DNA from: Myxococcota bacterium
GTDB lineage: Bacteria > UBA10199 > JADFYH01
NCBI GenBank assembly: GCA_052034865.1
Contig: JBPOIC010000039.1
Location: 5,195-69,194, forward strand
DNA: 64,000 nt
Reading direction: 5' to 3'
Shown: positions 1,089-57,886 of the stretch, in pieces
How positions within the stretch are numbered: position 1 is the first letter of the stretch
Layout: every line of letters begins with the position of its first letter
Notes under the pieces: model-generated
What the model was told of the DNA's origin: nothing
The model's input: only the letters and a program-made list of their open reading frames with translations
Databases searched by the model: none
Program-made: the position numbers and the translations under genes

Positions 1089-1170
1089 TGATCGTTCGCA
1101 ATGATTTCTCGGGCGTTTTTACAACTCGCTCTAACAATTGGCAGAAATGTTGTTTTAAAAAATTATTCTC

Positions 1171-18900: not shown

Positions 18901-18984
18901 ACATAATCCCCTCTTCTTGCTTTTCCCTCTTTGCCGACAATTCCCTTGACACCCAGGAATGCGTCCAATAACTCACGCAATTAA

Positions 18985-19359
18985 ATGAACAATCCCTACC
19001 TTCCCATCCTCATCCTGTTTGGAATTGCCTTTGTTTTTTCTGGTGCTTTTATTCTTCTTTCTTCTCTTCTGGGTCCCAAAAAACCAACTGCCTCAAAGCT
19101 TGATACTTATGAATGCGGAATGCCTCTCATTGGTGAACCTCGAAATCGCTTCTCCGTTAAATTTTTCCTCGTTGCGATCATCTTTATCCTGTTCGATGTG
19201 GAGGCCGTCTTTCTTTATCCCTGGGCCGTTTTATTCAAAGATTTTAAAGAAAAAGGAATGGGACCTTTTCTATTCTGGGAGATGAATGTCTTCCTGTTGA
19301 TTCTGGCTTTGGGGCTGTATTACGTGTGGAAACGCAAAGCCTTGGATTGGGAGAAATAA
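18985..19359 (+). CDS. nuoA: NADH-quinone oxidoreductase subunit A
   Basis: 124 aa, three TM helices, YECGMPLIGEP and FDVEAVFLYPWA motifs. Confidence 0.85.
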   Translation: MNNPYLPILILFGIAFVFSGAFILLSSLLGPKKPTASKLDTYECGMPLIGEPRNRFSVKFFLVAIIFILFDVEAVFLYPWAVLFKDFKEKGMGPFLFWEMNVFLLILALGLYYVWKRKALDWEK

Positions 19360-19444
19360 TTTCAGGCGATCGAGCACCCTGTGTCACTGTCCTTGTGTTC
19401 AGAAAAGGACAGTTCATCGATTGGTGACCGATTGCGTTTAAAGT

Positions 19445-19948
19445 ATGCATTCCGTTGCCGAAAACAATTTTTTAACGACAAAGCTCAGTGAGGTGATTGC
19501 CTGGGGGCGCAAGTTTTCCCTTTGGCCAATGCCCTTCGGAACTGCATGCTGTGCCATTGAGTTCATGGGGGCTGTGGATGCAGTTTACGATATCTCCCGC
19601 TTTGGCGCAGAGCTCGTCCGCTTTTCCCCTCGTCAATCCGATCTTCTACTGGTGCTTGGAACCATCAATTACAAGCAGGCACCTGTTCTCAAAAAAGTTT
19701 ATGAACAGATGTGCGATCCCAAGTGGGTGGTGGCAGTAGGAGCTTGTGCGACCTGTGGCGGATTTTACGACAATTATAGTGTGCTACAGGGAATCGATGA
19801 GATTATTCCCGTTGATGTTTATGTTCCTGGTTGTCCACCGAGGCCAGAATCCATTCTCAGAGGGATTGTTACCCTGCAGGAAAAAATTACGGCAGAGGCT
19901 AAAGGGGAGAAGATACAAAAACCATTTCCAATCAGTCAGCCTGCTTGA
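19445..19948 (+). CDS. nuoB: NADH-quinone oxidoreductase subunit B
   Basis: [21 protein letters not shown] (N2 cluster cysteines). Confidence 0.9.
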
Positions 19949-19997
19949 TGTGAGTGAATTTTTTGCGTTCCATAAAATAAGTGAAGGCTCTCTTTAA

Positions 19998-20489
19998 GTG
20001 AATGATATGAGCAAAGTGATCGATCGTTTTCAGCAGAAATTTTCAGAAAAGATTATTGGCTCTCATGCAAATCTTGGGGATGAGACCCTCGTCGTCTCCT
20101 CCGATGCTCTCATTGATATTCTTCAATTTGCAAAGCAAGACCCTGAGCTTCAGTTTGATATGTTGATGGATATTTGCGGGGTTGATTATCTGGGGCAAAC
20201 CCCGCGGTTTGAAGTAGTTTATCATCTCTATTCAGTTCCTAAAAACCATCGCCTTCGAATCAAAGTAAAAGTTCCGGAAGATAGCTGTCGGCTTCCTTCC
20301 TGCATTTCTCTCTGGAAATCAGCTGACTGGTTTGAGCGTGAAACCTGGGACATGATGGGAATTGAGTTTGAAAGTCATCCTTACTTAAGGCGACTGCTTT
20401 TATTTGAAGGATTCGAAGGGCATCCCTTGCGAAAAGATTATCAGATCGACAGACGTCAGAAAATTCCGGAGCCTTTAAAGAATCTCTAA
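19998..20489 (+). CDS. nuoC: NADH-quinone oxidoreductase subunit C
   Basis: 163 aa, 30-kDa subunit pattern (FDMLMDICGVDY ... ADWFERETWDMMGIEF). Confidence 0.85.
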   Translation: MNDMSKVIDRFQQKFSEKIIGSHANLGDETLVVSSDALIDILQFAKQDPELQFDMLMDICGVDYLGQTPRFEVVYHLYSVPKNHRLRIKVKVPEDSCRLPSCISLWKSADWFERETWDMMGIEFESHPYLRRLLLFEGFEGHPLRKDYQIDRRQKIPEPLKNL

Positions 20490-20542
20490 TTTGACAGGGC
20501 GATTTACGAACGGACCTTTTCTTGCGACCAAAATGAATCATT

Positions 20543-21745
20543 ATGATGCAACCTGTACTAGCCGAAGAAGGCGATCTTAAAACGAAAAAGATGTATTTAA
20601 ACATCGGACCCAACCATCCGGCGATGCACGGCACCTTGCGTCTGCTGGTTGAGCTCGATGGCGAGAATATTGTCAGCTCAATCGCCGAGATGGGCTATCT
20701 GCATCGTGGTTTCGAAAAACATTCTGAGACTGGCACTTATACTCAAGTCATTCCCTACACCGATCGACTCAACTACATCAGCCCTCTCATGAACAATGTC
20801 GGTTATTGCATGGCCGTCGAAAAACTTATCGGTTGTGAAATTCCCGAGCGTGCACAAGTCATCCGTCTCATTATTTGCGAGCTTTCACGTATTACCGATC
20901 ATCTTGTTTGTATTGGAACCAACCTGGTCGATATCGGTGCACTAACCAATTTTTGGTACTATTTTAATGTTCGTGAAAAGATTTACGACTTTATCGAGAA
21001 AATTTGCGGAGCGCGGCTTACGACCAACTACACCCGGATTGGTGGTCTTGCCCGTGATTTTCATCCCGAAGCTGCCGACGAATTAAAGATTATTTTAAAA
21101 GAAGTTCAGCGTGCGACCCAGGAAGTTCGAAATCTGATTTTAAAAAACAAAATTTTCTACGATCGAACTGCAGGGGTTGCACCTATTACTGCTGAAGAAG
21201 CGAAAAATTATGGATTCACTGGTCCCTGTTTGCGGGCGGCCGGGGTCGATTATGATGTTCGCAAGGCCCAACCCTATCTCAATTATCAGGATTATGATTT
21301 CGACATTCCCGTAGGTGAATCCGGCGATACTTATGATCGCTTTTTGGTACGCTTCGAAGAGATCCAACAGTCCAGTCGCATTATTGAGCAAGCCATTCCC
21401 AAGTTAAAGCCGGGTCCTGTCATGACCTCCGATCGCCGTGTGGCCCTGCCACCCAAGAGCGAAGTGTATACCAACATCGAAGCCCTCATGAATCACTTCA
21501 AGCTCATTTTCGAAGGTGTGCGTCCTCCTGCAGGAGAGGTTTATTCAGCAACTGAAGCAGCGAACGGAGAGCTGGGATTTTATATTGTAAGCGATGGGAG
21601 TACGCGTCCTTACCGTGTGAAATGCCGTCCCCCGTGTTTTCCCCTGTATGCGGCTTATCCAAAGATGATTCAGGGATCCATGATCGCCGATGCGATTGCG
21701 GTTCTGGGAAGTATCAATATTATTGCGGGAGAGTTAGACCGGTAA
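20543..21745 (+). CDS. nuoD: NADH-quinone oxidoreductase subunit D
   Basis: 400 aa, GPNHPAMHGTLRL... typical 49-kDa subunit. Confidence 0.9.
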   Translation: MMQPVLAEEGDLKTKKMYLNIGPNHPAMHGTLRLLVELDGENIVSSIAEMGYLHRGFEKHSETGTYTQVIPYTDRLNYISPLMNNVGYCMAVEKLIGCEIPERAQVIRLIICELSRITDHLVCIGTNLVDIGALTNFWYYFNVREKIYDFIEKICGARLTTNYTRIGGLARDFHPEAADELKIILKEVQRATQEVRNLILKNKIFYDRTAGVAPITAEEAKNYGFTGPCLRAAGVDYDVRKAQPYLNYQDYDFDIPVGESGDTYDRFLVRFEEIQQSSRIIEQAIPKLKPGPVMTSDRRVALPPKSEVYTNIEALMNHFKLIFEGVRPPAGEVYSATEAANGELGFYIVSDGSTRPYRVKCRPPCFPLYAAYPKMIQGSMIADAIAVLGSINIIAGELDR

Positions 21746-21793
21746 GTGATTCAAAATCTCTTTATTTAAGTTTCAAAATTTCCAAAGCTCTTT

Positions 21794-22267
21794 ATGTCTA
21801 TCGAGTTTTCACCCGAAAATAAAAAGAAGTTCGAAGAAACCCTGACCCATTATCCGACCAGGCGGGCTGCGCTGTTACCGACGCTCTGGATCGCCCAACG
21901 GCAGTTTGGTTGGATTTCGCCCGAGGTCATGGAATACATCGCGTCTTTACTCGAGATTCCACCCGTGAAGGTTTACGAAGTCGCAACCTTCTACACCATG
22001 TACAATACAAAGCCGGTCGGAAAATATCACCTGCAGGTGTGCCGGACTTTATCTTGTGAGCTGTGCGGAAAAGAAAAAATTGTTAACCACCTTCAAAGCA
22101 AATTGGGGATCAAGGCGGGCGAAACGACGGCGGATGGTCGATTTACTTTAACCGAAGTTGAATGCCTAGGCTCGTGCGGAACCGCACCCATGATGCAGGT
22201 CAATGATGATTATTTTGAAAATCTCACGCCTGAAAAGATCGACACGATTTTAAAAGGGCTTGAGTAA
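21794..22267 (+). CDS. nuoE: NADH-quinone oxidoreductase subunit E (2Fe-2S)
   Basis: CRTLSCELCG ... CLGSCGTAPMMQVND cysteine pattern. Confidence 0.9.
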   Translation: MSIEFSPENKKKFEETLTHYPTRRAALLPTLWIAQRQFGWISPEVMEYIASLLEIPPVKVYEVATFYTMYNTKPVGKYHLQVCRTLSCELCGKEKIVNHLQSKLGIKAGETTADGRFTLTEVECLGSCGTAPMMQVNDDYFENLTPEKIDTILKGLE

Positions 22268-23534
22268 AGTTATGGAACGTATCCTAACCGAACATTGGGG
22301 CAAAAAAGATTCGCACACACTGGCCTTTTATCTGGAGCATGGCGGTTATCAAACCCTGTCCAAGGTTTTTAAGATGAAGCCGGATGAAGTGATCGAAGAA
22401 GTTAAAAAATCCGGCCTGCGGGGGCGTGGAGGTGCTGGATTTGCGACGGGTATGAAATGGAGTTTTGTTCCCAAAGACAATTCCAAACCGCATTATCTTT
22501 GCATCAATGCAGATGAAAGCGAGCCCGGTACTTTTAAAGATCGCTACATCCTCGAAAATACCCCACATCAACTTATTGAAGGGGCCATCATTTGTTCATA
22601 TGCCATCGGGGCCAAAGCTGCTTACTGCTACATTCGGGGAGAATTTGTTTTTCCAGCCGATCGTATGGAAGCTGCGGTTCAGGAAGCCTACCAGGCAGGG
22701 TATCTGGGAAAAAACATTCAAGGCAGTGGAGTCGATCTTGATCTTTACGTTCACCGTGGAGCGGGCGCTTACATTTGCGGTGAAGAAACAGCCCTGCTCG
22801 AATCACTCGAAGGAAAACGTGGCTATCCACGCTTAAAACCCCCATTTCCGGCCCTTGTCGGTTTGTTCGGCTGCCCTACTGTCATCAATAACGTCGAAAC
22901 CCTGGCCGTTACTCCTTATATTCTCAACAACGGCGGTGAGGCTTACCGAAAATACGGCACGGAAAAAAGCCCAGGCACCAAGCTTTTCTGTGTTTCAGGT
23001 CATGTCAATAAACCTGGTAATTACGAAGTGCCTCTGGGTTATCCACTCAAAAAACTCATCTACGAAGATTGCGGTGGGATCAAAGACGGCAAGACCTTGA
23101 AGGCTGTGATTCCAGGCGGATCTTCTGTCCCTGTCCTGACAAAAAAAGAGGCCGAAGAGGTAAATCTCGATTACGAAGCCCTTCAGTCTGCAGGTTCGAT
23201 GCTCGGATCGGGAGGTGTGATTGTTATCGATGAAACCACATGCATGGTCAAAAGCCTGCTCAACCTCGCCCATTTTTATTCTCATGAATCCTGCGGTCAA
23301 TGTGCTCCCTGTCGTGAAGGAACCGGCTGGTCCTATAAAATTCTCAAGCGGATTGAAAATGGGGAAGGGACCGAGGCCGATCTGGAACGTCTGCTGCAAA
23401 ACGCCGATCACATGTCCGGAAAAACAGTGTGTGTGCTTTCCGATGCGCTCGCCATGCCGATCCAAAGTTTTTTAAAGCGCTTTCGTCATGAGTTTGAAGA
23501 ACATGTAAAGTTGAAGAAGTGCCCTATGAAATAA
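22260..23534 (+). CDS. nuoF: NADH-quinone oxidoreductase subunit F (FMN, 4Fe-4S)
   Basis: GLRGRGGAGF (NADH/FMN site), ESCGQCAPCREG (N3 cluster). Confidence 0.9.
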   Translation: MSKVMERILTEHWGKKDSHTLAFYLEHGGYQTLSKVFKMKPDEVIEEVKKSGLRGRGGAGFATGMKWSFVPKDNSKPHYLCINADESEPGTFKDRYILENTPHQLIEGAIICSYAIGAKAAYCYIRGEFVFPADRMEAAVQEAYQAGYLGKNIQGSGVDLDLYVHRGAGAYICGEETALLESLEGKRGYPRLKPPFPALVGLFGCPTVINNVETLAVTPYILNNGGEAYRKYGTEKSPGTKLFCVSGHVNKPGNYEVPLGYPLKKLIYEDCGGIKDGKTLKAVIPGGSSVPVLTKKEAEEVNLDYEALQSAGSMLGSGGVIVIDETTCMVKSLLNLAHFYSHESCGQCAPCREGTGWSYKILKRIENGEGTEADLERLLQNADHMSGKTVCVLSDALAMPIQSFLKRFRHEFEEHVKLKKCPMK

Positions 23535-23538
23535 TACT

Positions 23539-23862
23539 GTGAATCTTAATTTTGAATGGGATCATCCCAAGGTAGCTGAAAATATAAAAAAGCATGGCGT
23601 TTCTTTTTAGGAAGCTTCCAGCGCTTTATTAGATCCTCTTTCCTTAGCTTTCCCAGATAGTGGCCATTCTGCGTCAGAGTATCGGTTTCTGACTGTAGAG
23701 GAATCTACACAATTGAGATTACTGGTCGTCGCACACACTGACAGAAATGGAAAAATCCGGATCATCAGTGCCAGAAAAGCAACTCGTAAAGAACGTAGAT
23801 TTTTTTATGAAGAAAAAAGAATTAAAAAAACGAATTGCGGAGTGAGTACGATTTTTCCCTGA
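23539..23862 (+). pseudogene. brnT: brnT-like (DUF497) toxin gene with in-frame TAG
   Basis: GTG 23539: VNLNFEWDHPKVAENIKKHGVSF, then TAG at 23608-23610, then same frame continues EASSALLDPLS...LLVVAHTDRNGKIRIISARKATRKERRFFYEE to TGA 23860-62. FEWD...KHGVSF and IRIISARKAT are BrnT signatures. Confidence 0.6.
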
Positions 23863-24029
23863 TGAAGGGCGGCGTACAAGGGAAATACATGAAGGCTTAC
23901 AAGAAGGAAAGTAACGTTGTCTTGCTTGAACCCGATGTTACGAAGGCTTTTCCCAATGCAGATTCTGTTAATCAAGTTTTAAGAGACCTCATGAAGCTTG
24001 CTCGGCTTCGTCTGAGTCACAGCCGTTGA
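23835..24029 (+). CDS. brnA: BrnA-like antitoxin (RHH/CopG-like)
   Basis: 64 aa from TTG, SEYDFSLMKGGVQGKY...LEPDVTKAFPNADSVNQVLRDL matches BrnA EYDFS...GKY...LDxDV...VNxALR pattern. Overlaps brnT 3-prime end out of frame; stop overlaps nuoG start region. Confidence 0.6.
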   Translation: MRSEYDFSLMKGGVQGKYMKAYKKESNVVLLEPDVTKAFPNADSVNQVLRDLMKLARLRLSHSR

Positions 24030-24037
24030 GTAGTTTT

Positions 24038-25543
24038 ATGCCAACCCTAAAAATAGACAACCAAGATATCACCGTAGAACCAGGGACCACCGTCATCGAA
24101 GCGGCTAAAAAGCTCGGCGTGGAGATCCCTCATTTTTGCTACCATCCCAAACTTAGCATTTCGGGAAACTGCCGTATGTGTTTGGTAGAGGTGGAAAAAT
24201 TTCCAAAACCGCAAATTTCCTGCTCGCTCGTAGCCACCGACGGTATGGTCGTCCATACCCAATCCGAAAATGCAAAAAAGTGGCGCAAAAATGTCCTCCA
24301 GTTTATCCTCATCAATCATCCTCTCGATTGTCCGGTCTGCGATCAGGCGGGCGAGTGCAAGTTGCAAAATTACTATCTGAGCGAGTCGGTCAAGCTGAGT
24401 GAATTTCAGGAAGAAAAAGTTCACAAGCCAAAAAAAATCAGACTTGGTCCTCAGGTCATGCTCGATGACGAGCGCTGTATCATGTGTTCGCGCTGTATCC
24501 GCTTTTGCGATGAGATCACAAAGACCTCCGAGTTGGGATTCACTCAACGGGGAGATCACATCGAGCTGCGTCCTTTTCCTGGCAAAGAACTCAACAATCC
24601 CTATTCGATAAATACTGTTGATATTTGCCCAGTCGGTGCACTTACCAGCTCAGATTTTCGCTTTAAAAAACGGGTGTGGTTTTTAAAAACAGCCGATTCA
24701 ATTTGCTCGGGATGTTCGCGCGGATGCAATCTTCGTCTGCAATATGAAAATGAGACGGTTTATCGCTACCTGCCTCGTCAAAACGAAGCCGTGAATTCTG
24801 TTTGGCTCTGTGATGCCGGTCGTTTGAGTTATAAGCAGATCAATGAAAATCGTGTGATCACCTCTGAAAAACGAATCGAAGGTCAGCTTACGCGCATTCA
24901 TCCTGAACAGGCGATCAGTGAAGTAACAGCTCTTATGAAAAAAGCGGCTGGAAAACCAATCCTGGTCTTGGGAAGTGCGCAAGGTTCAAACGAAAATAAT
25001 CTGGCCTTAAAGAAATTAGCCGCACTTGTGGGCAGTGATCAAGTGGCACCAATGCTTGCCTACTCTGGACGTGAAGTTGCAAATCCTTACGAAGATGATT
25101 TTCTGATCAAGGCCGATAAGAACCCTAACACGCGCGGAGTAGAACATTTGGGTTTCCAGAAATTGAATCATGTTTCTTCCTCAGAAATTTGCCTCATTCT
25201 TGGAGAAGTTTCCGAACCGGATCTTAAGAAAATTGCAGAAACAAAACCTTCCTGCGTAATCTATTTTGCTACCCACCGAGACGCCACGACCGGGATTGCC
25301 GATTACCTTTTCCCCATCACGATATTTGCCGAAGAGTCGGGGACTTTCATGAATTTTGAAGGACGTGTGCAGAAATTCAATCCTGGGCCTAAATCTCGTG
25401 GTCAAATGAAGCCCGCCTGGCAATGGATAAAAGAGTTGGCTCAGGGGTTGGGAGTGGTCTGGAATCTTCATCCTGCTGCTTTGCTTCAGGAAGGGTTTGG
25501 TTTAAGTGATGCCGATCTTGGAGCCGAAGGCAAGAGGCTATGA
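24038..25543 (+). CDS. nuoG: NADH-quinone oxidoreductase subunit G (short form)
   Basis: 2Fe-2S (CYHP...GNCRMC), HPLDCPVCDQAGEC, CIMCSRCIRFC and CPVGALT clusters. About 500 aa, so the C-terminal molybdopterin-like domain is abbreviated. Confidence 0.8.
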   Translation: MPTLKIDNQDITVEPGTTVIEAAKKLGVEIPHFCYHPKLSISGNCRMCLVEVEKFPKPQISCSLVATDGMVVHTQSENAKKWRKNVLQFILINHPLDCPVCDQAGECKLQNYYLSESVKLSEFQEEKVHKPKKIRLGPQVMLDDERCIMCSRCIRFCDEITKTSELGFTQRGDHIELRPFPGKELNNPYSINTVDICPVGALTSSDFRFKKRVWFLKTADSICSGCSRGCNLRLQYENETVYRYLPRQNEAVNSVWLCDAGRLSYKQINENRVITSEKRIEGQLTRIHPEQAISEVTALMKKAAGKPILVLGSAQGSNENNLALKKLAALVGSDQVAPMLAYSGREVANPYEDDFLIKADKNPNTRGVEHLGFQKLNHVSSSEICLILGEVSEPDLKKIAETKPSCVIYFATHRDATTGIADYLFPITIFAEESGTFMNFEGRVQKFNPGPKSRGQMKPAWQWIKELAQGLGVVWNLHPAALLQEGFGLSDADLGAEGKRL

Positions 25544-26109
25544 GTTCTGCGAGGGTGCGGCATTTTTTTCTGGGGGTGATGCTCGTGACGGTTGTTCTGG
25601 TTTCTCCTTCTGCATTTTCGCAACTCTCCCGACTGCTATCCTCCAAAGAAATTACGGCCGTGATCTTGTCTCCGATGTTCGGCATTCCAGGAGATAAAGA
25701 CGGCCAATGGCTTTTAAACGATGAAGAAGCCTTGCAGGCCGAGAAAATTCTTCAAGGCTGCATCCTTGAAAAAACAAAGCAAACCCAGAATCCCAACGAA
25801 AATCGGTGGGAAACCATTCGGCGGGAAATTCAGGTGAGGGGTTGGTCCGAGATTCAAAAAAATCTTTCGGATTATTTGCGGCAATACGCCGGAGTCACAC
25901 GTGAGAAGAAAAAACTTGTTTGGATAAACGCTTTTCACAAAAACACCTTGTCTATTTTTGGGAAGACGAACGAAGCTTTTGGATTGAGTCTTCCTCGCTG
26001 GCAGAGAGAAGTGATTTACGCCAATGATGGTGGCACCTATTTTTTTAATGCCTTCGTCGATTTGAAAGTCGGCAGTTGCGAGTCGCTTCAGTTTAATGGA
26101 GGCGCTTGA
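25540..26109 (+). CDS. Hypothetical secreted/membrane-anchored protein inserted between nuoG and nuoH
   Basis: 189 aa, N-terminal hydrophobic helix FFLGVMLVTVVLVSPSAF, no recognisable domain. 4-nt overlap with nuoG stop. Confidence 0.35.
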   Translation: MSSARVRHFFLGVMLVTVVLVSPSAFSQLSRLLSSKEITAVILSPMFGIPGDKDGQWLLNDEEALQAEKILQGCILEKTKQTQNPNENRWETIRREIQVRGWSEIQKNLSDYLRQYAGVTREKKKLVWINAFHKNTLSIFGKTNEAFGLSLPRWQREVIYANDGGTYFFNAFVDLKVGSCESLQFNGGA

Positions 26110-26302
26110 AGGAGATGCGGTTCAAAATGCCTAAGCTCTTGGCAGGATTAATGGTTTTGATAGTGCTTTATCTGTTTTGTTTTAAGCTTGCCCTCTGGCG
26201 ATGTCATTCAGGTTGGGCTGGATCCCACTGCCATACGCTGCTTGGATCCGGGGGGCACAACGTCCTGCAGGCTTTTGGTCATCTACATTAGGAGAAACGA
26301 CT

Positions 26303-27562
26303 TTGCTACTCCTCCTCTTAAAAATTGTGGTTCCTTTTTTTGTGATTCTCAACATCATCCCTTTGCTGATTTGGCTGGAGCGTAAAGGTTCGGCCTATAT
26401 TCAGGATCGTCGCGGACCCAATCGCGCAGGCATTTTAGGTATTCGCCTTGGAGGAATGATTCACTCGCTCACCGACGTGGTGAAACTGCTTTTTAAAGAG
26501 GATATTATTCCCGCACGCGTGAATCGGTTTTTCTATATTCTTGCTCCTTTTATTTCGATGAGTGTGGCGTGTGTAACCTTTGCTGTTCTTCCTTTTGGCG
26601 ATGTGGTGCACTGGAACGGGGAGGCCATCACCCTACAGGCCGCTGATTTGAATGCCGGAATTTTATATATCTTTGCCATTGCTTCACTCGGTGTTTATGG
26701 CGTGATGCTGGCCGGTTGGAGTTCCGACAACAAATATTCTCTTTTGGGCGGACTTCGCTCCTCGGCCCAAATGATCAGCTATGAGATTGTTCTTTCGCTT
26801 GCCGTGATCAGTGTTTTGATGATGGCAGGCTCACTGGAACTTTCGGCGGTTGTGACCGATCAATCCGAAAAAGTTTGGGGATGGAATTTTTTGCGTCAGC
26901 CGATTGCGTGTGTGCTTTTCATGATTGCGATGTTTGCCGAAACCAATCGTTTGCCCTTTGATCTTCCAGAAGGTGAATCCGAGCTGGTGGCAGGATATCA
27001 TCTCGAATACAGCTCGATGAAATTTGCCCTCTTTTTCATGGCCGAATATGCCAACATGATCATTGCTTCGGCCGTCTTAACCTCCCTGTTTTTTGGTGGC
27101 TGGCAGGTTCCTTTTTTAAGCACCGAAACGCTTCGGGGAAATGCAGACTTGATTTTGAAAATCCTTCTGGGTGGCGGAATTCTTGTGCATCTACTGGGAG
27201 GCGGCGCCTTGTTCAAACATGGGCTAAACAATGTTCGAGTAAAAAAATGGGGTGATATTCGCGATTATGAGCCCGTGATTTTGGGAGTGGGAATCGGAGG
27301 TTTAGGAATTATCCTGATCGGAGCTCTTGCCTATTTCTGGACTACGTCGTTGGGTGAAAACGGAGCCTCAGTCGTTACAGGGGTGTTACAGGCCGTTACC
27401 TATATTTTAAAAATCCTGTTTTTCTGCTGGGTGTTTATATGGGTACGCTGGACGCTTCCGCGTTTTCGTTATGATCAGCTCATGAAGCTGGGCTGGAAGT
27501 ATATGCTTCCTTTAGCGCTCATCAATATTTTAGTGACGGGATGGGTGATGTTAGCGATTTAA
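26303..27562 (+). CDS. nuoH: NADH-quinone oxidoreductase subunit H with internal/C-proximal insertion
   Basis: LIWLERKGSAYIQDRRGPNRAG ... VRWTLPRFRYDQLMKLGWK are canonical NuoH. Start proposed at TTG 26303 after ggaga RBS (ORF opens 26201). About 80 extra residues before the last helix. Confidence 0.8.
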   Translation: MLLLLLKIVVPFFVILNIIPLLIWLERKGSAYIQDRRGPNRAGILGIRLGGMIHSLTDVVKLLFKEDIIPARVNRFFYILAPFISMSVACVTFAVLPFGDVVHWNGEAITLQAADLNAGILYIFAIASLGVYGVMLAGWSSDNKYSLLGGLRSSAQMISYEIVLSLAVISVLMMAGSLELSAVVTDQSEKVWGWNFLRQPIACVLFMIAMFAETNRLPFDLPEGESELVAGYHLEYSSMKFALFFMAEYANMIIASAVLTSLFFGGWQVPFLSTETLRGNADLILKILLGGGILVHLLGGGALFKHGLNNVRVKKWGDIRDYEPVILGVGIGGLGIILIGALAYFWTTSLGENGASVVTGVLQAVTYILKILFFCWVFIWVRWTLPRFRYDQLMKLGWKYMLPLALINILVTGWVMLAI

Positions 27563-28866
27563 ATCGATGCCATTATCTTTCTTAGGGTAGTGCCATCTTT
27601 TGCTTCTTCAGGAACAAAAGAAGAGAAGAGTTCAATTTCTGATAGAATAATTTCCTTACGAAAGTTCTCTCCTAAATCCTTTTTATTCCACTGCTCCCTT
27701 AAACTATTCCAGATGAGTTCTTTTTGAGTATCGGGCCTTTCCTGTTCCATTCGCAATGCTTCCATCAGAGTCGAGATGGCGCTTAAATCTTCAGACTTCC
27801 CTAAAATTTCAATAGCAAATTTTCTGATTTCAACATTTTCACTTAAGCAAAGCCCTAAGAGAATTTGATGGGTATACGATGGATTTTGCTGGGTGAGTTT
27901 TAAAAAGAGCTCCTGCAGTTGAGGTGAATAAGTTTTTAGAAATCTTTCTCCCCGAGACTGTTTCAACGAAGCTTCCCATTTTTGTGAAAGAAGGCGGGCA
28001 AACCTGAAAGGATCTTCTTCTTTTTCGAAGAGTGATTTGAAAACGGTTTGATCGAGTTTTTGAATGACCGTTTCCTGCCAGGTAATATCCCAGGAGAAAT
28101 CTTTCGTGGAGATGAGACTTGCTAATGATTCTTCGGCACACTGAAGATCGCGTGCATCGCCGATTTCAATGAGGAGTGAAATCAGCACAGGAAGGCTGAG
28201 AGTAGGACTATAATGAAAATCGTAATGTTCATACTCAAAGCGACTTAAATTCGACTGCCACTCATCAAACAGAGTAGAATCGGTCAGTGCGCATGAATGC
28301 TGAAATAAAAGATGAACCCCAAGCTCCAGGGCTTTTTCAATCTCTGAAGTCATGGGCCGTCCCAAAAATCGAATCAACTCTACCGCTCGGTTTCGTTCAC
28401 TAAACCGTGCATTGCTTAAGTTAATTAAAAGATCATGGGCTAGCTTATGAGTTTCAGGACTTTGCTCCCCGATCTGTCCCCATTTTTTAAGCAGATGAAA
28501 AATCTCTATTCTTTTTTTCAGTGATGGATAGGAAGACAGCAAAGGAGATGAAATGTCCTGCGCCATATTCTTTTTGAAAAGATAGACTCGCCTTTCAAAG
28601 GCCAGGTTGCTTCGATTGGGATCTCCCAAAAGGCGATCGGCCAATTTTTCAAACCCCAGTTCATTAAGTTTTTGGCGGATTTCCGGATTGCGCAGGTCGG
28701 CATCCGGTTGAGTGGCCGAAATCAGGTAGGTCTTGAGTGGAGCGGTGTCGGGAAATAAATCAGTGGGAAGAATATTTTCTGCTTCTTCAGGTGTCAGCCC
28801 GTCTTTATCTGACAAGGCAGCCAGAAGCTTCTCAACACGGTCTCCTCCAATTCGCAACTCTGCCAT
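27559..28866 (-). CDS. HEAT-repeat protein, antisense to the nuo genes, in the position normally held by nuoI
   Basis: 435 aa. Repeated helical pairs such as NVEIRKFAIEILGKSEDLSAISTLMEAL resemble PBS-lyase/HEAT repeats. No catalytic motif recognised. Confidence 0.45.
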   Translation of the reverse strand: MAELRIGGDRVEKLLAALSDKDGLTPEEAENILPTDLFPDTAPLKTYLISATQPDADLRNPEIRQKLNELGFEKLADRLLGDPNRSNLAFERRVYLFKKNMAQDISSPLLSSYPSLKKRIEIFHLLKKWGQIGEQSPETHKLAHDLLINLSNARFSERNRAVELIRFLGRPMTSEIEKALELGVHLLFQHSCALTDSTLFDEWQSNLSRFEYEHYDFHYSPTLSLPVLISLLIEIGDARDLQCAEESLASLISTKDFSWDITWQETVIQKLDQTVFKSLFEKEEDPFRFARLLSQKWEASLKQSRGERFLKTYSPQLQELFLKLTQQNPSYTHQILLGLCLSENVEIRKFAIEILGKSEDLSAISTLMEALRMEQERPDTQKELIWNSLREQWNKKDLGENFRKEIILSEIELFSSFVPEEAKDGTTLRKIMASI

Positions 28867-29102
28867 CTGAAAAACCCTCCCCCGGATTTACAGCAAGCAC
28901 GCTGTTACAGTGTTTTATAAGGTAGTAATGAAGGCTCAATTGCTTCTAACCACAATGGGTATTATATTTTTTCCTTAAGGTCTCATTGTGGAGAAGCACT
29001 TGAAGCTTTATTTCTGATGAATTGCCTTGAATAAAATTGTGGTATTCGTTAGTGAATGGCCATTCAAAAAGCGTTCGAATTGTAGCCCTATCCCAAAAAA
29101 AT

Positions 29103-29603
29103 ATGCAACCGATTCTCTTCTATCTTTTTGGCGGCTTGGCCCTTGCAACGGCGCTGGGCGTCATAGTCTTTAAAAATCCCATTTCCTCTGCTTTCTCTCT
29201 CATCGTTTCTTTTTTTGCCATGGCGGGTTTATATGCCATGCTCGATGCCCACTTTTTGGCGATCATTCAAATCCTGGTTTATGCAGGTGCCATTATGGTG
29301 CTCTTTATTTTTGTCATCATGCTCTTGAATCTTCAGGGGGATGAATTGAAAGAGCGTCCTTTTCATCCTTATTTTAAAGGTCTTGCGGCTTTATTGCTCC
29401 TGGGGTTTGGAGGTGTGCTGTATCTTGTCCTGGGACCGATGAATACTTCAATGAGAGAAGTGGGCGATGGTTTCGGTAGCATTAAAGAGGTAGGGACTGA
29501 GCTATTTACACGTTACTGGTTTGCTTTCGAATATACCTCGATTTTGTTACTGGTTGCCCTGATTGGTGGAGTTGTATTGGCAAAAAGGGAGTTAAAACCA
29601 TGA
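29103..29603 (+). CDS. nuoJ: NADH-quinone oxidoreductase subunit J
   Basis: MQPILFYLFGGLALATALGVI... typical NuoJ; ATG 29103 (ORF opens 29037). Confidence 0.85.
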   Translation: MQPILFYLFGGLALATALGVIVFKNPISSAFSLIVSFFAMAGLYAMLDAHFLAIIQILVYAGAIMVLFIFVIMLLNLQGDELKERPFHPYFKGLAALLLLGFGGVLYLVLGPMNTSMREVGDGFGSIKEVGTELFTRYWFAFEYTSILLLVALIGGVVLAKRELKP

Positions 29604-29905
29604 CCCTCGAGATCTCACACTATCTCATTTTGAGTGCCGCACTTTTTACCTTGGGCCTTGCGGGCCTGGTGATCCGAAGAAATATTCTGGTTATCTTCAT
29701 GTCCATTGAGCTTTTGCTCAATGCAACCAATCTGGCTTTTGTTACCTTTTCCCGCTTTCGCGGAAGCATTGATGGCCAGATCGCCTCTTTTTTTGTGATT
29801 GCCGTCGCCGCCGCTGAAGCCGCTGTTGGTTTGGCGATCGTGATTGCCATCTTCAGAAACCGGGGAACAGTGAAGGTGGATGAGTTGAACATGATGAAGA
29901 GATAG
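29600..29905 (+). CDS. nuoK: NADH-quinone oxidoreductase subunit K
   Basis: 101 aa, three TM helices, 4-nt overlap with nuoJ. Confidence 0.9.
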   Translation: MTLEISHYLILSAALFTLGLAGLVIRRNILVIFMSIELLLNATNLAFVTFSRFRGSIDGQIASFFVIAVAAAEAAVGLAIVIAIFRNRGTVKVDELNMMKR

Positions 29906-29919
29906 AGATTGTAAAAATA

Positions 29920-30096
29920 GGTGCCGATAAGGTTCTGACAGCCATTTTAAGAGGAGTCTCCGACTCCAGTCTTCACTTTCTGGATATTTGTCGTTTTCTT
30001 AAATAACTGGGTTTTGAGGAAAAGATTCGTGGAAGACATCATATCTTTTCCAAAGAGGGAATTGAGGAAATCATCAATCTTCAGCCTGCCGGATAA
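29920..30096 (+). pseudogene. hicA-like toxin remnant (single in-frame TAA, truncated)
   Basis: ...KVLTAILRG...FLK, then TAA(30004-06), then LGFEEKIRGRHHIFSKEGIEEI. GF..R.kGSHHxF..(E/P)G resembles the HicA/YcfA core. No start codon, C-terminus missing. Confidence 0.3.
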
Positions 30097-30161
30097 AAAA
30101 CGAAGCCATCAGGTTAAGCAGGTGTGAGCTATTGTGTTGAAATTACAAGTCGGAGATCTGA

Positions 30162-30421
30162 ATACATAAATCCGAAATCATTATTTACTGGAGCAAAGAA
30201 GATCATAGTTTAGTCGCAGATGCTCCTGAGTTGCCAGGTTGTATGGCGAATCCATCTATAAGAAAGCCCTCCAGAACGCAGATTATTCGGGAATGGATTT
30301 AAACTGCAAAAGAGTTGGGATGCGAAATTCCCGAGCCAAAAGGAAGGTTAATGTTTGCTTAAAAAGAACTTCCGAAATTTTATATTTTAACTCACTCCTT
30401 CATCCTCTCATTAGAAACTGA
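30162..30421 (+). pseudogene. hicB-family (UPF0150) antitoxin gene, frameshifted
   Basis: IIIYWSKEDHSLVADAPELPGC (30162-30242) carries the UPF0150 signature V.(E/D)LPGC. The usual continuation G(D/E)T/S..EAL.NA appears in the +2 frame as GESIYKKALQNAD (ORF 30239-30421). Confidence 0.5.
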
Positions 30422-30443
30422 GGAAGGGAGCCACGAATAAATT

Positions 30444-32405
30444 ATGACGCCTCCCCTCTATCTCATTCCTCTCCTGCCCTTGTTGGGTGCCCTGATCAAC
30501 GGTGCAACGGCATTGCACGTTGCTTACTGGAAGAAAAAACCCTCAGAAACTTTCGTGAGTGTAGTGGGAGTATTTTTCCCCTTACTTTCTTTTGCTTTTG
30601 CCCTGATGGCAGCCTGGCCTTTTATTTTGGGTGGAGTGTCCGAAGCGCGGGTGGACCCCGTTTTTGAATGGTTGGCAGCAGGAAACTTTAAGGTCGGATT
30701 CGATTTGCAGCTGGATCGACTCTCCTCCCTTATGGTTCTTATCGTGACAGGGATTGGAACTCTCATCCATCTTTACTCAACGGGATATATGAAGGGGGAT
30801 GGCGCCTTTGCCCGCTATTTTACTTATTTAAATTTATTCCTTTTCTCGATGCTCCTGCTCATCTTGGGCAATAACCTTTTAATTCTTTTCATTGGTTGGG
30901 AAGGCGTCGGATTGTGCAGTTATCTCCTCATCGGTTTTTGGTTCGATGATCCAGCCAAGGCTTCAGCCGGAAAAAAGGCCTTTGTGGTAAACCGAATAGG
31001 TGATTTTGGCTTTTTGCTCGCGGTTTTCATCATCGTTGCCCTTCTGCTTCCCAATGCCCAAGCTGCCTCTGAGGGAATCTTAAGCTTTTCCACCCTTGAA
31101 AAATACAAAGAGATTTTGGCCCCGATGGCCACAGCAATTACGCTTCTGCTCTTCGTTGGAGCGACCGGTAAATCTGCTCAAATTCCTTTATATGTCTGGC
31201 TGCCAGATGCCATGGCGGGTCCAACACCAGTTTCTGCACTCATCCACGCCGCGACTATGGTGACCGCGGGTGTATACATGGTGGCACGACTTTCATTTCT
31301 TTTTGATCTGGCTCCTTTTTCCAGGGAGGTGGTTGTCACCATTGGAGCTGCCACGGCCCTTTTTGCGGCCACGATCGGTATCGTTCAGCGCGACATCAAA
31401 AAAGTTCTCGCCTACTCAACTGTTTCCCAGCTGGGCTACATGTTCATCGGAGTAGGGCTGGGCGCCAATACCGCCGGGGTTTTTCACTTAATGACCCACG
31501 CATTTTTTAAAGCCTGTCTCTTTTTGGGATCGGGCTCCGTCATTCACGCCATGCATGGCGAACAGGATATTTTCAAAATGGGCGGACTTAAGAAATGGAT
31601 GCCTATAACGTTCTGGACCTTTTTTATCTCTACTATCGCGATCGCGGGCATTCCTCCTTTTTCCGGATTTTTCAGCAAGGATGAAATCCTCTTCCAGGCC
31701 TTTGACCGTGGCTATCCTGTTCAGGGAATGTTGGGACTGATTGCTGCTGGAATGACGGCCTTTTATATGTTTCGCCTGACGACTCTGACGTTCATGGGCA
31801 AGTGCCGGGCCGATCATCACACTCAGGAGCATCTTCACGAATCTCCCTGGACGATGACCCTCCCTCTTATTCTTCTTGCCATTCTCGCGATTGGGGGAGG
31901 TTGGGTAGGAATTCCCGAGGCCTTTGGTGGACATAATCATTTGCACCATTGGTTAGGACTCGAAGGACACATCGGATCTTTTGCGGAAGAGTCTCATCAA
32001 ACCGCCGAACATGGGCCAGCCGAGATTCGCCTCGCTGTTTTCAGTGCGGTGTGGGCCTTGTTCTGGTCTGTCTTTGCTGTTGTACTTTATCTCAAAAAGA
32101 CCCAATGGATGGACGCTCTTGAGAAAAAACTCAAAGGCTTAAATACCCTGGTTTATAACAAATATTATGTCGATGAAATTTATGAGACTCTGATCGTAAA
32201 ACCCTTGGCCTGGATTTCTGAAAAGGTCTTGTGGCGTGGGGTCGATGCAGGTGTGATCGACGGAATCTTAGTCAATGGAGGTGCTCGTTTTACCCAATTT
32301 TTAGGTCAGATCGCAGGGACTCTTCAAACAGGAATAGTGAATGCCTATGCCCTCTGGTTTTTGGCGGGGGTAGTGGGAATTCTGGTCTGGGTCCTGTCGA
32401 TGTAA
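30444..32405 (+). CDS. nuoL: NADH-quinone oxidoreductase subunit L
   Basis: 653 aa antiporter-like subunit. Confidence 0.9.
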   Translation: MTPPLYLIPLLPLLGALINGATALHVAYWKKKPSETFVSVVGVFFPLLSFAFALMAAWPFILGGVSEARVDPVFEWLAAGNFKVGFDLQLDRLSSLMVLIVTGIGTLIHLYSTGYMKGDGAFARYFTYLNLFLFSMLLLILGNNLLILFIGWEGVGLCSYLLIGFWFDDPAKASAGKKAFVVNRIGDFGFLLAVFIIVALLLPNAQAASEGILSFSTLEKYKEILAPMATAITLLLFVGATGKSAQIPLYVWLPDAMAGPTPVSALIHAATMVTAGVYMVARLSFLFDLAPFSREVVVTIGAATALFAATIGIVQRDIKKVLAYSTVSQLGYMFIGVGLGANTAGVFHLMTHAFFKACLFLGSGSVIHAMHGEQDIFKMGGLKKWMPITFWTFFISTIAIAGIPPFSGFFSKDEILFQAFDRGYPVQGMLGLIAAGMTAFYMFRLTTLTFMGKCRADHHTQEHLHESPWTMTLPLILLAILAIGGGWVGIPEAFGGHNHLHHWLGLEGHIGSFAEESHQTAEHGPAEIRLAVFSAVWALFWSVFAVVLYLKKTQWMDALEKKLKGLNTLVYNKYYVDEIYETLIVKPLAWISEKVLWRGVDAGVIDGILVNGGARFTQFLGQIAGTLQTGIVNAYALWFLAGVVGILVWVLSM

Positions 32406-32498
32406 GTGATTTGTTCAAGACTCCATCGGTTTTTATCTCCGGCTTGAAGACAGCGGAATGACGATCGAGTCTTAAAAATCAAACTGCAGGAGAGTTGA

Positions 32499-32894
32499 AT
32501 GGAGAATTTGCCAGTCGTAGGAGAGCAGAATAATCCATCAGGGAGCATCAATCCTTTTCAGATGCTCAACTGGTTGGTGGGAATCGTCTTAATCGGGATA
32601 GGTTGTGCTTTAAGTTACTGGTTGTTTCGAGCGATCGGCGATTTTTTATATGCCCCTGAAAAAATCGCTCTGCTCGGAAAAATTTTACAAACTCCCTCGG
32701 GAGATCAATCTATTCGCATTATATTAAATGGATCTCCGAATGGTACCGGTCAGGGAGTGACCGTTCAGTACAATGATTTTGTGAAATACTTTGTCTTTTT
32801 GGTGGTGGGTTTTATTTTGTTTGGATCGATTGGACGGATTATCTCGGCTTTTTTTAGTGCTGGAATTAAAGCCCTGACAGGAAGATTGCAGTAA
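32499..32894 (+). CDS. Hypothetical two-TM membrane protein inserted between nuoL and nuoM
   Basis: 131 aa, two hydrophobic helices (LNWLVGIVLIGIGCALSYWLF; YFVFLVVGFILFGSIG), no known motif. Confidence 0.35.
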   Translation: MENLPVVGEQNNPSGSINPFQMLNWLVGIVLIGIGCALSYWLFRAIGDFLYAPEKIALLGKILQTPSGDQSIRIILNGSPNGTGQGVTVQYNDFVKYFVFLVVGFILFGSIGRIISAFFSAGIKALTGRLQ

Positions 32895-33049
32895 TCTTTA
32901 GTACTTCATTAGTACTGCAGAATGGACGGAGCAAGTCCGTCTGACAACGGTGAGTTTTTAGATTTATTACTTTTCTGGTTTTTTCCCTTCTTCTGATTGG
33001 GATAAAACCCTTAAGGAAAACAACAGCTGTGGAATGGTGAAATAAAACA

Positions 33050-34543
33050 ATGGACCATTTTCTTTCCCTTATTATTTTTCTCCCCTTCATCGGCGCGATC
33101 CTGCTTCTTTTGATTCCAAAAGAAAAAAAATCCGCAATTCAAACCTTAAGTTTTCTGGTTTCCCTGATCACGTTTGTGATCTCGATCAAACTCTATTTTG
33201 GCTACGATCCAAAATCCTCAGAGCTGTTTCAGTTTAAAGAATCCTTCCCCTGGATAGAGGCCTTCAATATCCACTACACCGTCGGCCTCGATGGTATCAG
33301 CCTGCTGCTCTTTTTGCTCACGACGTTTATTGTACCCCTGGCCATCCTTTTTTCAACTGGATCTATCGATCGACGCGAAAAAGAATATTACGTTTTCCTT
33401 TTGATTCTGGAAACCGCCATGCTCGGTGCCTTTGCCGCCCTCGATCTGTTTTTGTTTTACGTATTTTGGGAGGCCATGCTCATCCCCATGTATTTTCTGG
33501 TGGGTATCTGGGGTGGGGCCCGAAGAGTTTACGCCGCGCTTAAATTCTTTATCTACACAATGCTTGGCTCCGTCCTCATGCTCGCGGCGATTCTTTATGT
33601 ATATTTTCAGGTCGGTGGCAGTTTTGCCTACACCGATTGGTTGCAGAATTTACACCTCACTCCGAATATCCAACTTGTTCTTTTCTCAGCCTTTGCGTTG
33701 TCCTTTGCGATCAAAGTTCCGATGTTTCCTTTGCATACCTGGTTACCGGATGCTCACGTGGAGGCGCCTACCGCGGGTTCAGTCATTCTGGCGGCGATCC
33801 TTTTGAAGATGGGCACTTACGGCTTTATTCGATTTGCCATGCCTTTGTTTCCGGATGCCGTCGCTCAGGCGCGGCCTGTGCTCGCAACTCTTGCAGTCGT
33901 AGGGATTGTTTACGGAGCCTTGGTTAGCATGGTGCAAACCGATATTAAAAAATTGGTCGCCTACTCTTCGGTTTCACACTTGGGTTTTGTAATGTTGGGT
34001 CTCATGGCCCTGACCCCGCAGTCGGTGGGAGGGGCGGTTTACCAAATGCTCAATCATGGTGTGTCTACCGGAGCTCTCTTCCTTTTGGTGGGGATGATTT
34101 ACGATCGCCGGCACACCCGACAAATTGCCGATTTTGGAGGGATCGCAAAGGTAATGCCTTTGTATACCACCCTCTTTTTGATCGTCACTTTTTCCTCGAT
34201 TGGCCTTCCTGGTACGAACGGATTTGTCGGTGAATTTTTGATCTTGATGGGATCGTTTCAAACCTTCCCGGTTGCAAGTGTGGTCGCAACTACAGGTGTG
34301 ATTCTCGCAGCGGTTTACATGCTTTGGATGGTTCAACGGGTTTTCTTTGGGGCCTTAAATAATCCTAAAAATGAAAAACTCAAAGATTTGAATCTGAAAG
34401 AAGCCGTCATCCTTTTTCCGCTGATTCTTCTTGTTTTCTGGATGGGATTTTATTCGAAACCGTTTTTTGAAAAGATGGATCCTTCGGTTGGAACGGTCAT
34501 TCAGAAAATGCAGGAGCAGTCTGCGGCTCTGGCAAAGAAATAA
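33050..34543 (+). CDS. nuoM: NADH-quinone oxidoreductase subunit M
   Basis: 497 aa antiporter-like subunit. Confidence 0.9.
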   Translation: MDHFLSLIIFLPFIGAILLLLIPKEKKSAIQTLSFLVSLITFVISIKLYFGYDPKSSELFQFKESFPWIEAFNIHYTVGLDGISLLLFLLTTFIVPLAILFSTGSIDRREKEYYVFLLILETAMLGAFAALDLFLFYVFWEAMLIPMYFLVGIWGGARRVYAALKFFIYTMLGSVLMLAAILYVYFQVGGSFAYTDWLQNLHLTPNIQLVLFSAFALSFAIKVPMFPLHTWLPDAHVEAPTAGSVILAAILLKMGTYGFIRFAMPLFPDAVAQARPVLATLAVVGIVYGALVSMVQTDIKKLVAYSSVSHLGFVMLGLMALTPQSVGGAVYQMLNHGVSTGALFLLVGMIYDRRHTRQIADFGGIAKVMPLYTTLFLIVTFSSIGLPGTNGFVGEFLILMGSFQTFPVASVVATTGVILAAVYMLWMVQRVFFGALNNPKNEKLKDLNLKEAVILFPLILLVFWMGFYSKPFFEKMDPSVGTVIQKMQEQSAALAKK

Positions 34544-34570: not shown

Positions 34571-36076
34571 GTGGAGCTTATGGATATTCAATGGCAAAGT
34601 TACGTGAACAGTCACCTTCCCCTTCTGATTATTATTGTGACGGGTCTTGTGACCATGATTGCAGGGCTCATCCTGGAGAAGGGAAGTCATAAAATCCTTC
34701 TGGCACTATCACTGATTGGGATTTGTTTTGCCTGGCTTTCCAGCTATCAAATTTGGGCTCTAGGTCTTTATAAAACAGGAAGTGATTTTTTAATCGTCGA
34801 CCGATTTTCCTCTTTTCTTTATCTCGTGATTTTGTTGAGTGGTTTTTTTTCCTGTTTGAGTCACTACGACTATTTCGAAAAACAAAACGGATATCATCCT
34901 GAAATCTATTCCCTCACTTTGTTTGCGCTTTCCGGCATGATGGTCATGGTTTCCACCACCCATCTCCTCCTCTTCTTTTTGGCCCTCGAGGTGATGAGTC
35001 TGGCGATCTATGTTCTGGTAGGTTTCAAACGCAAAGACCCACGCTCTAATGAAGGAGCTATAAAATATTTTATTTTAGGAGCGATGATCGCAGGATTTTT
35101 CCTTTACGGGACGGCTTTAATCTATGGAGGGACTGCTCAGCTGGATTTACAACATCTTCCCACGGGAGCTCTTCCGGAAAACTATCAGTTTCTGCTTACA
35201 ATCGGTGTTGTACTTGTCATTGTGAGCCTTGGTTTTAAGGTAGCCGCCGTTCCTTTTCATTTCTGGACCCCCGATGTGTACGAAGGGGCTCCGTTATCCG
35301 TGACCGGATTTATGGCCACAGCCGTGAAGGCAGCGGCGTTTGGAGCGCTTCTTCGTTTTCTCTTTGTGCTGACCCCCATCAAAGGGCTTCCCACATTTCA
35401 GATTCTTCAGTTTTTAGCGATCGCCACCTTGGTGGTCGGAAATCTGGTGGCCTTGTATCAAACCAATATCAAGCGCATGCTGGCTTATTCTTCCATTGCT
35501 CACGCGGGTTATATTCTTGTCGGTGTGTGTGCAACTTACGCAGCAGGTTTTTTCCATCCTCAGGTTTTAGGGGCCCCTGTTTTTTATCTGTTTGCCTATA
35601 GTCTGATGACCTTAGGTGCTTTTGCCGTGACAGCCGCGGTGGCTCATCCCTTAAACGATAATGTCGAGATTTCTCACTATAATGGCCTCGCAGAACGTTC
35701 ACCAAAGTTGGCAGCTGCGATGGCGGTCTTTATGTTTGCCCTTACAGGTATTCCGCCAAGTATTGGGTTCGCGGGAAAATTCTTTATATTCCGTGAGGCC
35801 GTTCATCAGGGACTTTATCCGCTAGTCATTGTGGGTGTGTTGATGAGTGCGGTATCCGCTTATTATTACCTACGGGTGATTGTGGCGATGTATTTCGGAT
35901 CTGCCCCTGATTCAGTGAATGCTCCTGAACGTCCAGTGGTCAAACCGGCGCTGGCTTTTGTCATTCTTTTCTGTCTGGTGAGTACCCTCTATATGGGCTT
36001 GGCTCCTTCCCGTTATTTAAAGATCTCCAGTGACTCGGATTTTATTTCTAAATCCCAAATCAGCCAGCTTCCTTAA
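34571..36076 (+). CDS. nuoN: NADH-quinone oxidoreductase subunit N
   Basis: 501 aa antiporter-like subunit. Confidence 0.9.
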   Translation: MELMDIQWQSYVNSHLPLLIIIVTGLVTMIAGLILEKGSHKILLALSLIGICFAWLSSYQIWALGLYKTGSDFLIVDRFSSFLYLVILLSGFFSCLSHYDYFEKQNGYHPEIYSLTLFALSGMMVMVSTTHLLLFFLALEVMSLAIYVLVGFKRKDPRSNEGAIKYFILGAMIAGFFLYGTALIYGGTAQLDLQHLPTGALPENYQFLLTIGVVLVIVSLGFKVAAVPFHFWTPDVYEGAPLSVTGFMATAVKAAAFGALLRFLFVLTPIKGLPTFQILQFLAIATLVVGNLVALYQTNIKRMLAYSSIAHAGYILVGVCATYAAGFFHPQVLGAPVFYLFAYSLMTLGAFAVTAAVAHPLNDNVEISHYNGLAERSPKLAAAMAVFMFALTGIPPSIGFAGKFFIFREAVHQGLYPLVIVGVLMSAVSAYYYLRVIVAMYFGSAPDSVNAPERPVVKPALAFVILFCLVSTLYMGLAPSRYLKISSDSDFISKSQISQLP

Positions 36077-57873: not shown

Positions 57874-57886
57874 TATTTTGTCACTC

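Follow-up and report, generated by a model that had tools for sequence, protein, structure and literature searches.

The 64-kb stretch of DNA examined here (the window throughout; positions 5,195 to 69,194 of contig JBPOIC010000039.1, GenBank assembly GCA_052034865.1, from a Myxococcota bacterium) contains a complex I operon of 13 nuo genes, nuoA to nuoH and nuoJ to nuoN, from which nuoI is missing. All 13 lie on the + strand and score far above the Pfam gathering thresholds (Table 1), and their order, orientation and iron-sulfur (Fe-S) ligand motifs are those of the canonical 14-gene operons of E. coli (nuoA-N) and Thermus thermophilus (nqo1-14). The window departs from these in that only 13 of the 14 subunits of a co-located operon are encoded, with nuoI absent between nuoH and nuoJ, and in that five non-nuo inserts, one on the opposite strand, interrupt the series. 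The opposite-strand insert lies at the H/J junction. With the nuoJ start most likely at the ATG at 29103, whose product of 166 amino acids (aa) agrees with the 164-171 aa of relatives, non-nuo DNA would fill 27563-29102, a segment of 1,540 bp that comprises a 435-aa open reading frame (ORF) and 236 bp of non-coding DNA and is found in this genome only. An earlier reading made from the letters alone (hereafter the sequence-only reading) had taken this antisense gene, described as a HEAT-repeat protein, to occupy the slot of the missing nuoI.

The absence of nuoI from the locus was examined by motif and by profile. The NuoI signature consists of two CxxCxxCxxxCP motifs about 40 residues apart; the C..C..C...CP motif has no occurrence in any of the window's six reading frames, and the sole match to C..C..C...C there is the N4 site of NuoG. 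The same script recovers the NuoI motif beside nuoH in 39 of 80 related loci (described below). A hidden Markov model (HMM) built from 40 NuoI proteins adjoining nuoH in related loci was run with filters off (--max) on every fragment between stops that reached 15 aa or more, a procedure that tolerates frameshifts. In the window its top match, at E = 0.064, fell in the ferredoxin domain of NuoG. Within 27559-29102, where a frameshift-aware search had been named in advance as the test that could overturn the claim, the best match was noise (E = 1.6, 5 bits), with no pseudogene remnant. With both searches empty and 13 nuo genes present, the reported absence of nuoI from this locus stands.

NuoH was searched against 5.8 billion proteins, and the more than 120 clusters returned, 58-77% identical, belong to uncultured bacteria whose deposited names are 'Deltaproteobacteria bacterium' or 'bacterium'. 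Genomic context was fetched for six relatives from independent assemblies (L082, JGI 3300027815; L084, GCA_046346885.1; L085, GCA_015233135.1; L086, GCA_001799145.1; L087, GCA_046346845.1; L088, GCA_964384365.1), with NuoH 59-77% identical to that of the window. All six have the operon order A-B-C-D-E-F-G-H-J-K-L-M-N, the stop of nuoH lies 1-13 nt from the start of nuoJ, and none has a match to the NuoI profile or to the Fe-S dicluster motif within 10 kb on either side. So short a gap suggests co-transcription of nuoH and nuoJ in the relatives, probably with translational coupling. In a neighbour-joining tree of NuoH, the window groups with L082, L084 and L085 in one I-less clade; in the neighbouring group the order nuoH-nuoI-nuoJ is found in L002-L006, and L011 (Latescibacteria) is without nuoI.

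Since nuoH and nuoJ adjoin without nuoI across the clade, nuoI would have left the operon in the clade ancestor, and since none of the relatives has a counterpart of the 435-aa ORF, this ORF would be a later insertion into an H/J spacer of a few nucleotides that displaced no nuoI. The window shows the same succession of nuoH and nuoJ with no nuoI nearby, and differs in the 1,540-bp insert at the junction. The idea that the antisense gene sits in the place of nuoI is therefore not upheld; nothing was there to be displaced.

Operons without nuoI extend beyond this clade. Among the NuoH matches listed for GTDB representatives, 80 loci were compared over at most 10 kb on either side of nuoH, the best being 53% identical. 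In 41 of these nuoH is followed by nuoJ without nuoI, so the gap is much less unusual than the sequence-only reading implied; the 41 are mostly Acidobacteriota, and include Binatia, Methylomirabilota, Latescibacteria and Bdellovibrionales. In 25 of the 41, again mostly Acidobacteriota, nuoB is missing as well (order A-C-D-E-F-G-H-J-K-L-M-N), and in such loci both small Q-module Fe-S subunits are jointly unlinked from the operon. The acidobacterial nuoACD(EFG)HJKLMN operons (loci of Bryobacterales, Terriglobia and Acidiferrales) resemble the window in that nuoH is followed by nuoJ, the order is otherwise canonical, and nuoI lies outside the operon, to be supplied from elsewhere. However, they lack nuoB, which the window keeps, have no antisense gene at the H/J junction, and belong to another phylum with NuoH only ~40-45% identical. 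In peatland Acidobacteria, 'nuoACDHJKLMN operons' have been described, one per genome including nuoEFG, and the lack of nuoI from one metagenome-assembled genome (MAG) was taken as incompleteness (bioRxiv 10.1101/197269); that remark implies that nuoI lies elsewhere in the others. A literature search for nuoI-less operons returned only this acidobacterial remark and none on the type that contains nuoB and lacks nuoI. The locus in the window joins a widespread, already noted kind of nuoI-less operon, with nuoB retained.

The NuoI subunit carries clusters N6a and N6b, which lie between N5 and N2. In the window, the N2 ligands of NuoB are kept (CC35/36, C101 and C130), as are the N3 and flavin mononucleotide motifs of NuoF, and the cysteine/histidine motifs for N1b, N5, N4 and N7 are readable in the NuoG translation. 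Each of the 13 nuo ORFs runs to full length and has strongly coding codon usage. A NuoI/TYKY homologue with N6a and N6b is known from every relative of complex I characterised so far (Nuo, NDH-1, Fpo, Ech and Mbh). Given this universal homologue and the intact Fe-S ligands on both sides of the N6a/N6b position, a NuoI encoded in trans by an unlinked gene is by far the likeliest arrangement. The sequence-only reading had left two options, a nuoI encoded elsewhere or one that was replaced; the former remains the best inference, whereas no Fe-S protein in the window could account for the latter.

A second nuo cluster could be the source of NuoI (and NuoB), or could share it with the I-less operon. 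A candidate is seen in L087, where a second cluster with nuoL, nuoM and nuoN visible (positions 1-3459) ends 660 bp short of the I-less operon, on its upstream side and in tandem with it. A second, convergent nuoM/N lies about 2 kb downstream in five acidobacterial loci (L019, L024, L031, L032 and L038, at ~19-21 kb). The dispersed ndh genes of cyanobacteria and plastids show that complex I subunits assemble without a single operon. In those genomes, however, ndhI stays linked to ndhA (the equivalent of nuoH), and it is that very linkage that is broken in the window.

The 435-aa ORF looks like a genuine gene with host-like codon usage. A GGAGG precedes its ATG, and its codon-usage log-likelihood ratio, +0.226 per codon in frame, falls among the values of the nuo genes; the other five frames all score below zero. 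The insert as a whole matches the host in codon usage and GC content, is not flanked by meaningful direct or inverted repeats, and has no Rfam match, either in the 236-bp spacer or elsewhere. The protein is an orphan (ORFan): in a word-indexed database of 5.8 billion (5.8e9) proteins it matched only itself, nothing scored above threshold in Pfam, NCBIfam, PADLOC or PHROGs, and no paralogue is detectable within the window. When 1.84e9 representatives were searched exhaustively with HMMER, four marginal matches emerged (E 4e-5 to 8e-4), all pairing residues 334-386 with multi-HEAT proteins. The HEAT_2 (PF13646) and HEAT_PBS (PF03130) models scored 19.0 bits against a cutoff of 27.7 and 13.4 bits against a cutoff of 20.9, respectively.

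The structure prediction that had been proposed as a check, a single-sequence AlphaFold (AF2) model, is all-helical with 22 helices but of low confidence (mean pLDDT, the score predicted for the local distance difference test, 48). The top Foldseek matches of this model in the PDB are alpha-solenoids at non-significant scores (E>=0.024, TM ~0.2), with none at E<=0.001. No internal repeats are detectable, the observed score being below the shuffle mean, and no signal peptide or transmembrane segment is apparent by eye; a cytoplasmic, all-alpha protein is predicted. Compared with the HEAT_2 and PBS-lyase HEAT-like repeat proteins, it has one similar helix pair (residues ~326-386) and a predicted helical fold throughout, but falls below the Pfam thresholds and lacks detectable repeated units. 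The opposite-strand ORF is thus real, but the HEAT-repeat label is weakly supported, and the description that fits is an all-alpha ORFan with one HEAT-like motif. In itself it is an unremarkable singleton.

The 236-bp spacer between the ORFan and nuoJ presumably houses the promoters of both. Promoter-like sequences number about 2 standard deviations above the shuffle mean and terminator-like sequences are at background; no sigma-70 consensus reached the scan threshold in the spacer, and the stretch from nuoH to nuoJ has no predicted terminator on the + strand.

The statement that the locus has been remodelled by at least five insertions, with the 13 nuo genes remaining co-oriented, is borne out by comparison with the uninterrupted operon of L084, against which five inserts are private to the window (F/G, G/H, H/J, K/L and L/M). 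At the F/G junction, where a toxin-antitoxin system had been proposed, there is a match to BrnT_toxin (36.8 bits, cutoff 34.5, E 4.8e-9), but it covers only profile positions 52-77 of 77 and represents a truncated remnant, not a full-length toxin domain. The 189-aa ORF of the G/H insert has no Pfam, NCBIfam, PADLOC or PHROG match, is absent from the relatives and forms a cluster of one. In the relatives nuoK abuts nuoL, and the short ORFs of the K/L spacer have no significant family match. Overall, the ORFan, the 189-aa and 131-aa ORFs and the small ORFs are without counterpart in the relatives, whereas a 210-aa gene after nuoN and a PilZ-domain gene before nuoA are shared.

Passengers of other kinds are found at varied junctions in or beside the nuo operons of the clade, including the BrnT remnant, Unstab_antitox with ParE, DUF4160 with DUF2442, a HicB-like gene and GIY-YIG (Table 1). 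This pattern suggests recurrent, tolerated insertion into the intergenic spacers of an essential operon. In the nqo cluster of Paracoccus denitrificans, unidentified reading frames reportedly lie between nqo genes without destroying the operon; these are said to be co-oriented and accompanied by all 14 core genes, whereas the window has one convergent insert and no nuoI.

Taken together, these observations are probably best explained by a functional 13-gene operon without nuoI, with nuoH abutting nuoJ, that was ancestral to the clade of this organism. NuoI would come from a gene at an unlinked genomic site, perhaps in a second nuo cluster, and would be added to the complex after translation, as the dispersed cyanobacterial ndh genes and the Acidobacteriota operons would also require. 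Later, and in this genome only, the 1,540-bp segment would have entered the H/J spacer of a few nucleotides as one of five lineage-specific insertions. With the tight junction of nuoH and nuoJ broken, nuoJ to nuoN would now be expressed through 1.5 kb of read-through antisense to the ORFan, or from a promoter newly arisen in the 236-bp spacer. Most likely the ORFan encodes a soluble protein, all-alpha in structure, that takes no direct part in electron transfer.

Several points weigh against this explanation. No NuoI gene was found for the source genome or for any clade member: in a protein search seeded with the NuoI of L002, the listed matches are Krumholzibacteria-like at 65-93% identity and none is attributable to the clade. 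The source-genome DNA covered amounts to 64 kb plus a 2.8-kb extension; this extension, obtained rightward from Logan contigs (L090), carries sugar-biosynthesis genes and no NuoI, and leftward there was no extension. The scan for promoters and terminators gave none that defines transcription units. Finally, the assembly was checked with a Logan contig of run SRR34217545, which corresponds to window positions 17559-32913 at 100% identity over 15.4 kb and spans the H/J junction, but this contig was probably derived from the same reads as the MAG, and the check is therefore not fully independent.

The 435-aa protein might instead be tied to complex I, as a lineage-specific factor in assembly or an accessory scaffold or, through its convergent transcription, as a regulator (antisense or roadblock) that uncouples expression of nuoA-H from that of nuoJ-N. 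It is encoded within the operon, in overlap with the stop codon of nuoH, and without a predicted + strand terminator between nuoH and nuoJ, sense and antisense transcription should collide. HEAT-like alpha-solenoids are, moreover, typically protein-protein scaffolds, and the weak HEAT_2 score and the matches to HEAT proteins point in that direction. However, the gene is absent from all six relatives, whose operon is the same and whose enzyme presumably is too; the protein has no homologue anywhere searched; and given that unrelated passengers (toxin-antitoxin genes, GIY-YIG and ORFans) occupy other junctions, location alone is no evidence of function. Such a role is accordingly considered unlikely.

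It is very unlikely that the locus is decaying, with the insertions and the missing nuoI as steps of pseudogenisation in a genome that is losing complex I. Five insertions, a truncated BrnT among them, do interrupt the operon. Nevertheless, the nuo ORFs are complete, coding in character and intact at the cofactor ligands, no frameshifts or premature stops were seen in them, and NuoH retains its 59-77% identity to relatives whose operons are uninterrupted.

A complex I that works without any NuoI homologue, in which a non-homologous protein bridges the gap from N5 to N2 or the enzyme functions differently, is more improbable still. In its favour, none of the clade loci examined has nuoI, and a clade-specific gene for a 210-aa protein (210-224 aa across the clade) directly follows nuoN and is conserved at ~2 bits per residue, on par with NuoD. 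This protein has no match in Pfam, NCBIfam, PHROG, PADLOC or PDB sequences, nor does phmmer detect it in the 80 more distant loci, covered to at most 10 kb on each side of nuoH, and its AF2 model is at pLDDT 35. With only three cysteines and no Fe-S motif, the protein does not qualify as an Fe-S substitute, but it could serve complex I of this clade as an accessory or assembly protein. The universality of NuoI among characterised relatives also stands against such an enzyme, as do the conserved N5 and N2 ligands, which imply a conventional chain still in need of N6a and N6b, and the acidobacterial operons with the same gap, for which nuoI elsewhere is implied in the preprint cited above. The narrower proposition, that the whole clade has dispensed with NuoI in favour of a non-homologous bridge for which the 210-aa protein is the only candidate seen here, is the least probable of all, although if true it would represent the first complex I relative lacking a TYKY-type subunit. 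An assembly or binning artefact (a chimeric H/J join, or a collapsed contig that lost nuoI), to which the metagenomic origin of the contig and the occurrence of the ORFan in one sample only might point, is just as improbable as an enzyme without NuoI, since the Logan contig spans the junction, the insert resembles the host in codon usage and GC, and the absence of nuoI is repeated in six other assemblies.

The chief use of the locus is as a correction. If, as preferred here, NuoI is supplied in trans, a nuoI gap in a nuo operon should not be taken to mean that the subunit was lost or replaced, and genomes of this kind will be misclassified by automated calls of 'complete complex I' that demand co-location. 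As about half of the related loci listed for NuoH are without nuoI beside nuoH and many are without nuoB, two Q-module Fe-S subunits would routinely be supplied in trans. These may be shared between complex I isozymes, which poses a testable question of assembly and isozyme mixing. Operons of this clade tolerate repeated insertion of toxin-antitoxin genes and ORFans, once on the opposite strand, and could be used to study how expression survives interruption.

Table 1. Features of the nuo locus, in window coordinates, and comparison sites in related loci, in the coordinates of each locus.
Feature	Position	Strand	Basis or remark
PilZ-domain gene, upstream of nuoA	18544-18900	+	phmmer E 1e-47 against relatives
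nuoA	18985-19359	+	Pfam; nuoA-nuoF E range 1e-27 to 1e-112
nuoB	19445-19948	+	Pfam
nuoC	19998-20489	+	Pfam
nuoD	20543-21745	+	Pfam
nuoE	21794-22267	+	Pfam
nuoF	22260-23534	+	Pfam
F/G insert: truncated BrnT remnant (23713-23862) and 64-aa ORF (23835-24029)	23535-24025	+	no L084 counterpart
nuoG, 505 aa, the short form that relatives also have	24026-25543	+	Pfam Fer2_4, NADH-G_4Fe-4S_3, Fer4_Nqo3, Molybdopterin
G/H insert: 189-aa ORF, signal-peptide-like N-terminus, singleton	25540-26109	+	coding-like codon usage
nuoH	26201-27562	+	Pfam NADHdh E 1.5e-114
435-aa ORFan, convergent with nuoH	27559-28866	-	stop codons overlap by 4 nt
Non-coding spacer, 236 bp, between divergent starts of ORFan and nuoJ	28867-29102		no ORF
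nuoJ (start most likely)	29103-29603	+	Pfam Oxidored_q3 / Oxidored_q2 (nuoJ and nuoK)
nuoK	29600-29905	+	Pfam Oxidored_q3 / Oxidored_q2 (nuoJ and nuoK)
K/L spacer, short ORFs only (37 aa, 60 aa)	29906-30443	+	lineage-specific
nuoL	30444-32405	+	Pfam Proton_antipo_M and related models
L/M insert: 131-aa membrane ORF, singleton	32499-32894	+	absent from relatives
nuoM	33050-34543	+	Pfam Proton_antipo_M and related models
nuoN	34571-36076	+	Pfam Proton_antipo_M and related models
210-aa clade-specific gene directly after nuoN	36124-36756	+	E 1e-112 to 1e-126 against L082, L084, L085
Counterparts of the 210-aa gene	L082 17004-17645; L084 17051-17689; L085 17255-17929; L088 17090-17743		
Passenger sites in relatives	L082 6513-7036; L085 6155-6699, 9475-9982, 14082-14267; L088 8129-8413; L086 17935-18514		
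Loci without nuoB and nuoI (1)			L007-L010, L016-L017, L019-L022, L024-L025, L027-L030
Loci without nuoB and nuoI (2)			L035-L036, L038, L045, L047-L048, L052, L058, L069, L075

The NuoH protein of the window extends ~110 residues beyond the Pfam NADHdh model, with residues 41-446 aligned to profile positions 2-297. NuoH measures 415-453 aa across the window and its relatives, the relatives accounting for 415-436 aa, and the true start possibly lies ~33 codons downstream of the annotated one. The long form is not tied to the absence of nuoI, because it is also found in Krumholzibacteriota that have nuoI. Upstream of nuoA, a Pfam PilZ domain is present at the same position in the gene calls of L001, L082, L084 and L088, which hints at regulation related to cyclic di-GMP (c-di-GMP) or merely at conserved synteny.

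The other genes of the window are ordinary chromosomal ones, among them citrate synthase, iPGM, methylmalonyl-CoA mutase and polysaccharide synthesis genes. An ORF of 2,883 aa lies at 41291-49942 on the - strand. Adjoining the polysaccharide genes, at 57303-59108 (- strand), are a fragment of an IS1595-family DDE transposase (164 aa) and a gene with a helix-turn-helix (HTH) domain (303 aa). The GC content around this fragment swings from 53% to 36-38% (58-62 kb), and the region is probably a mobile-element scar.

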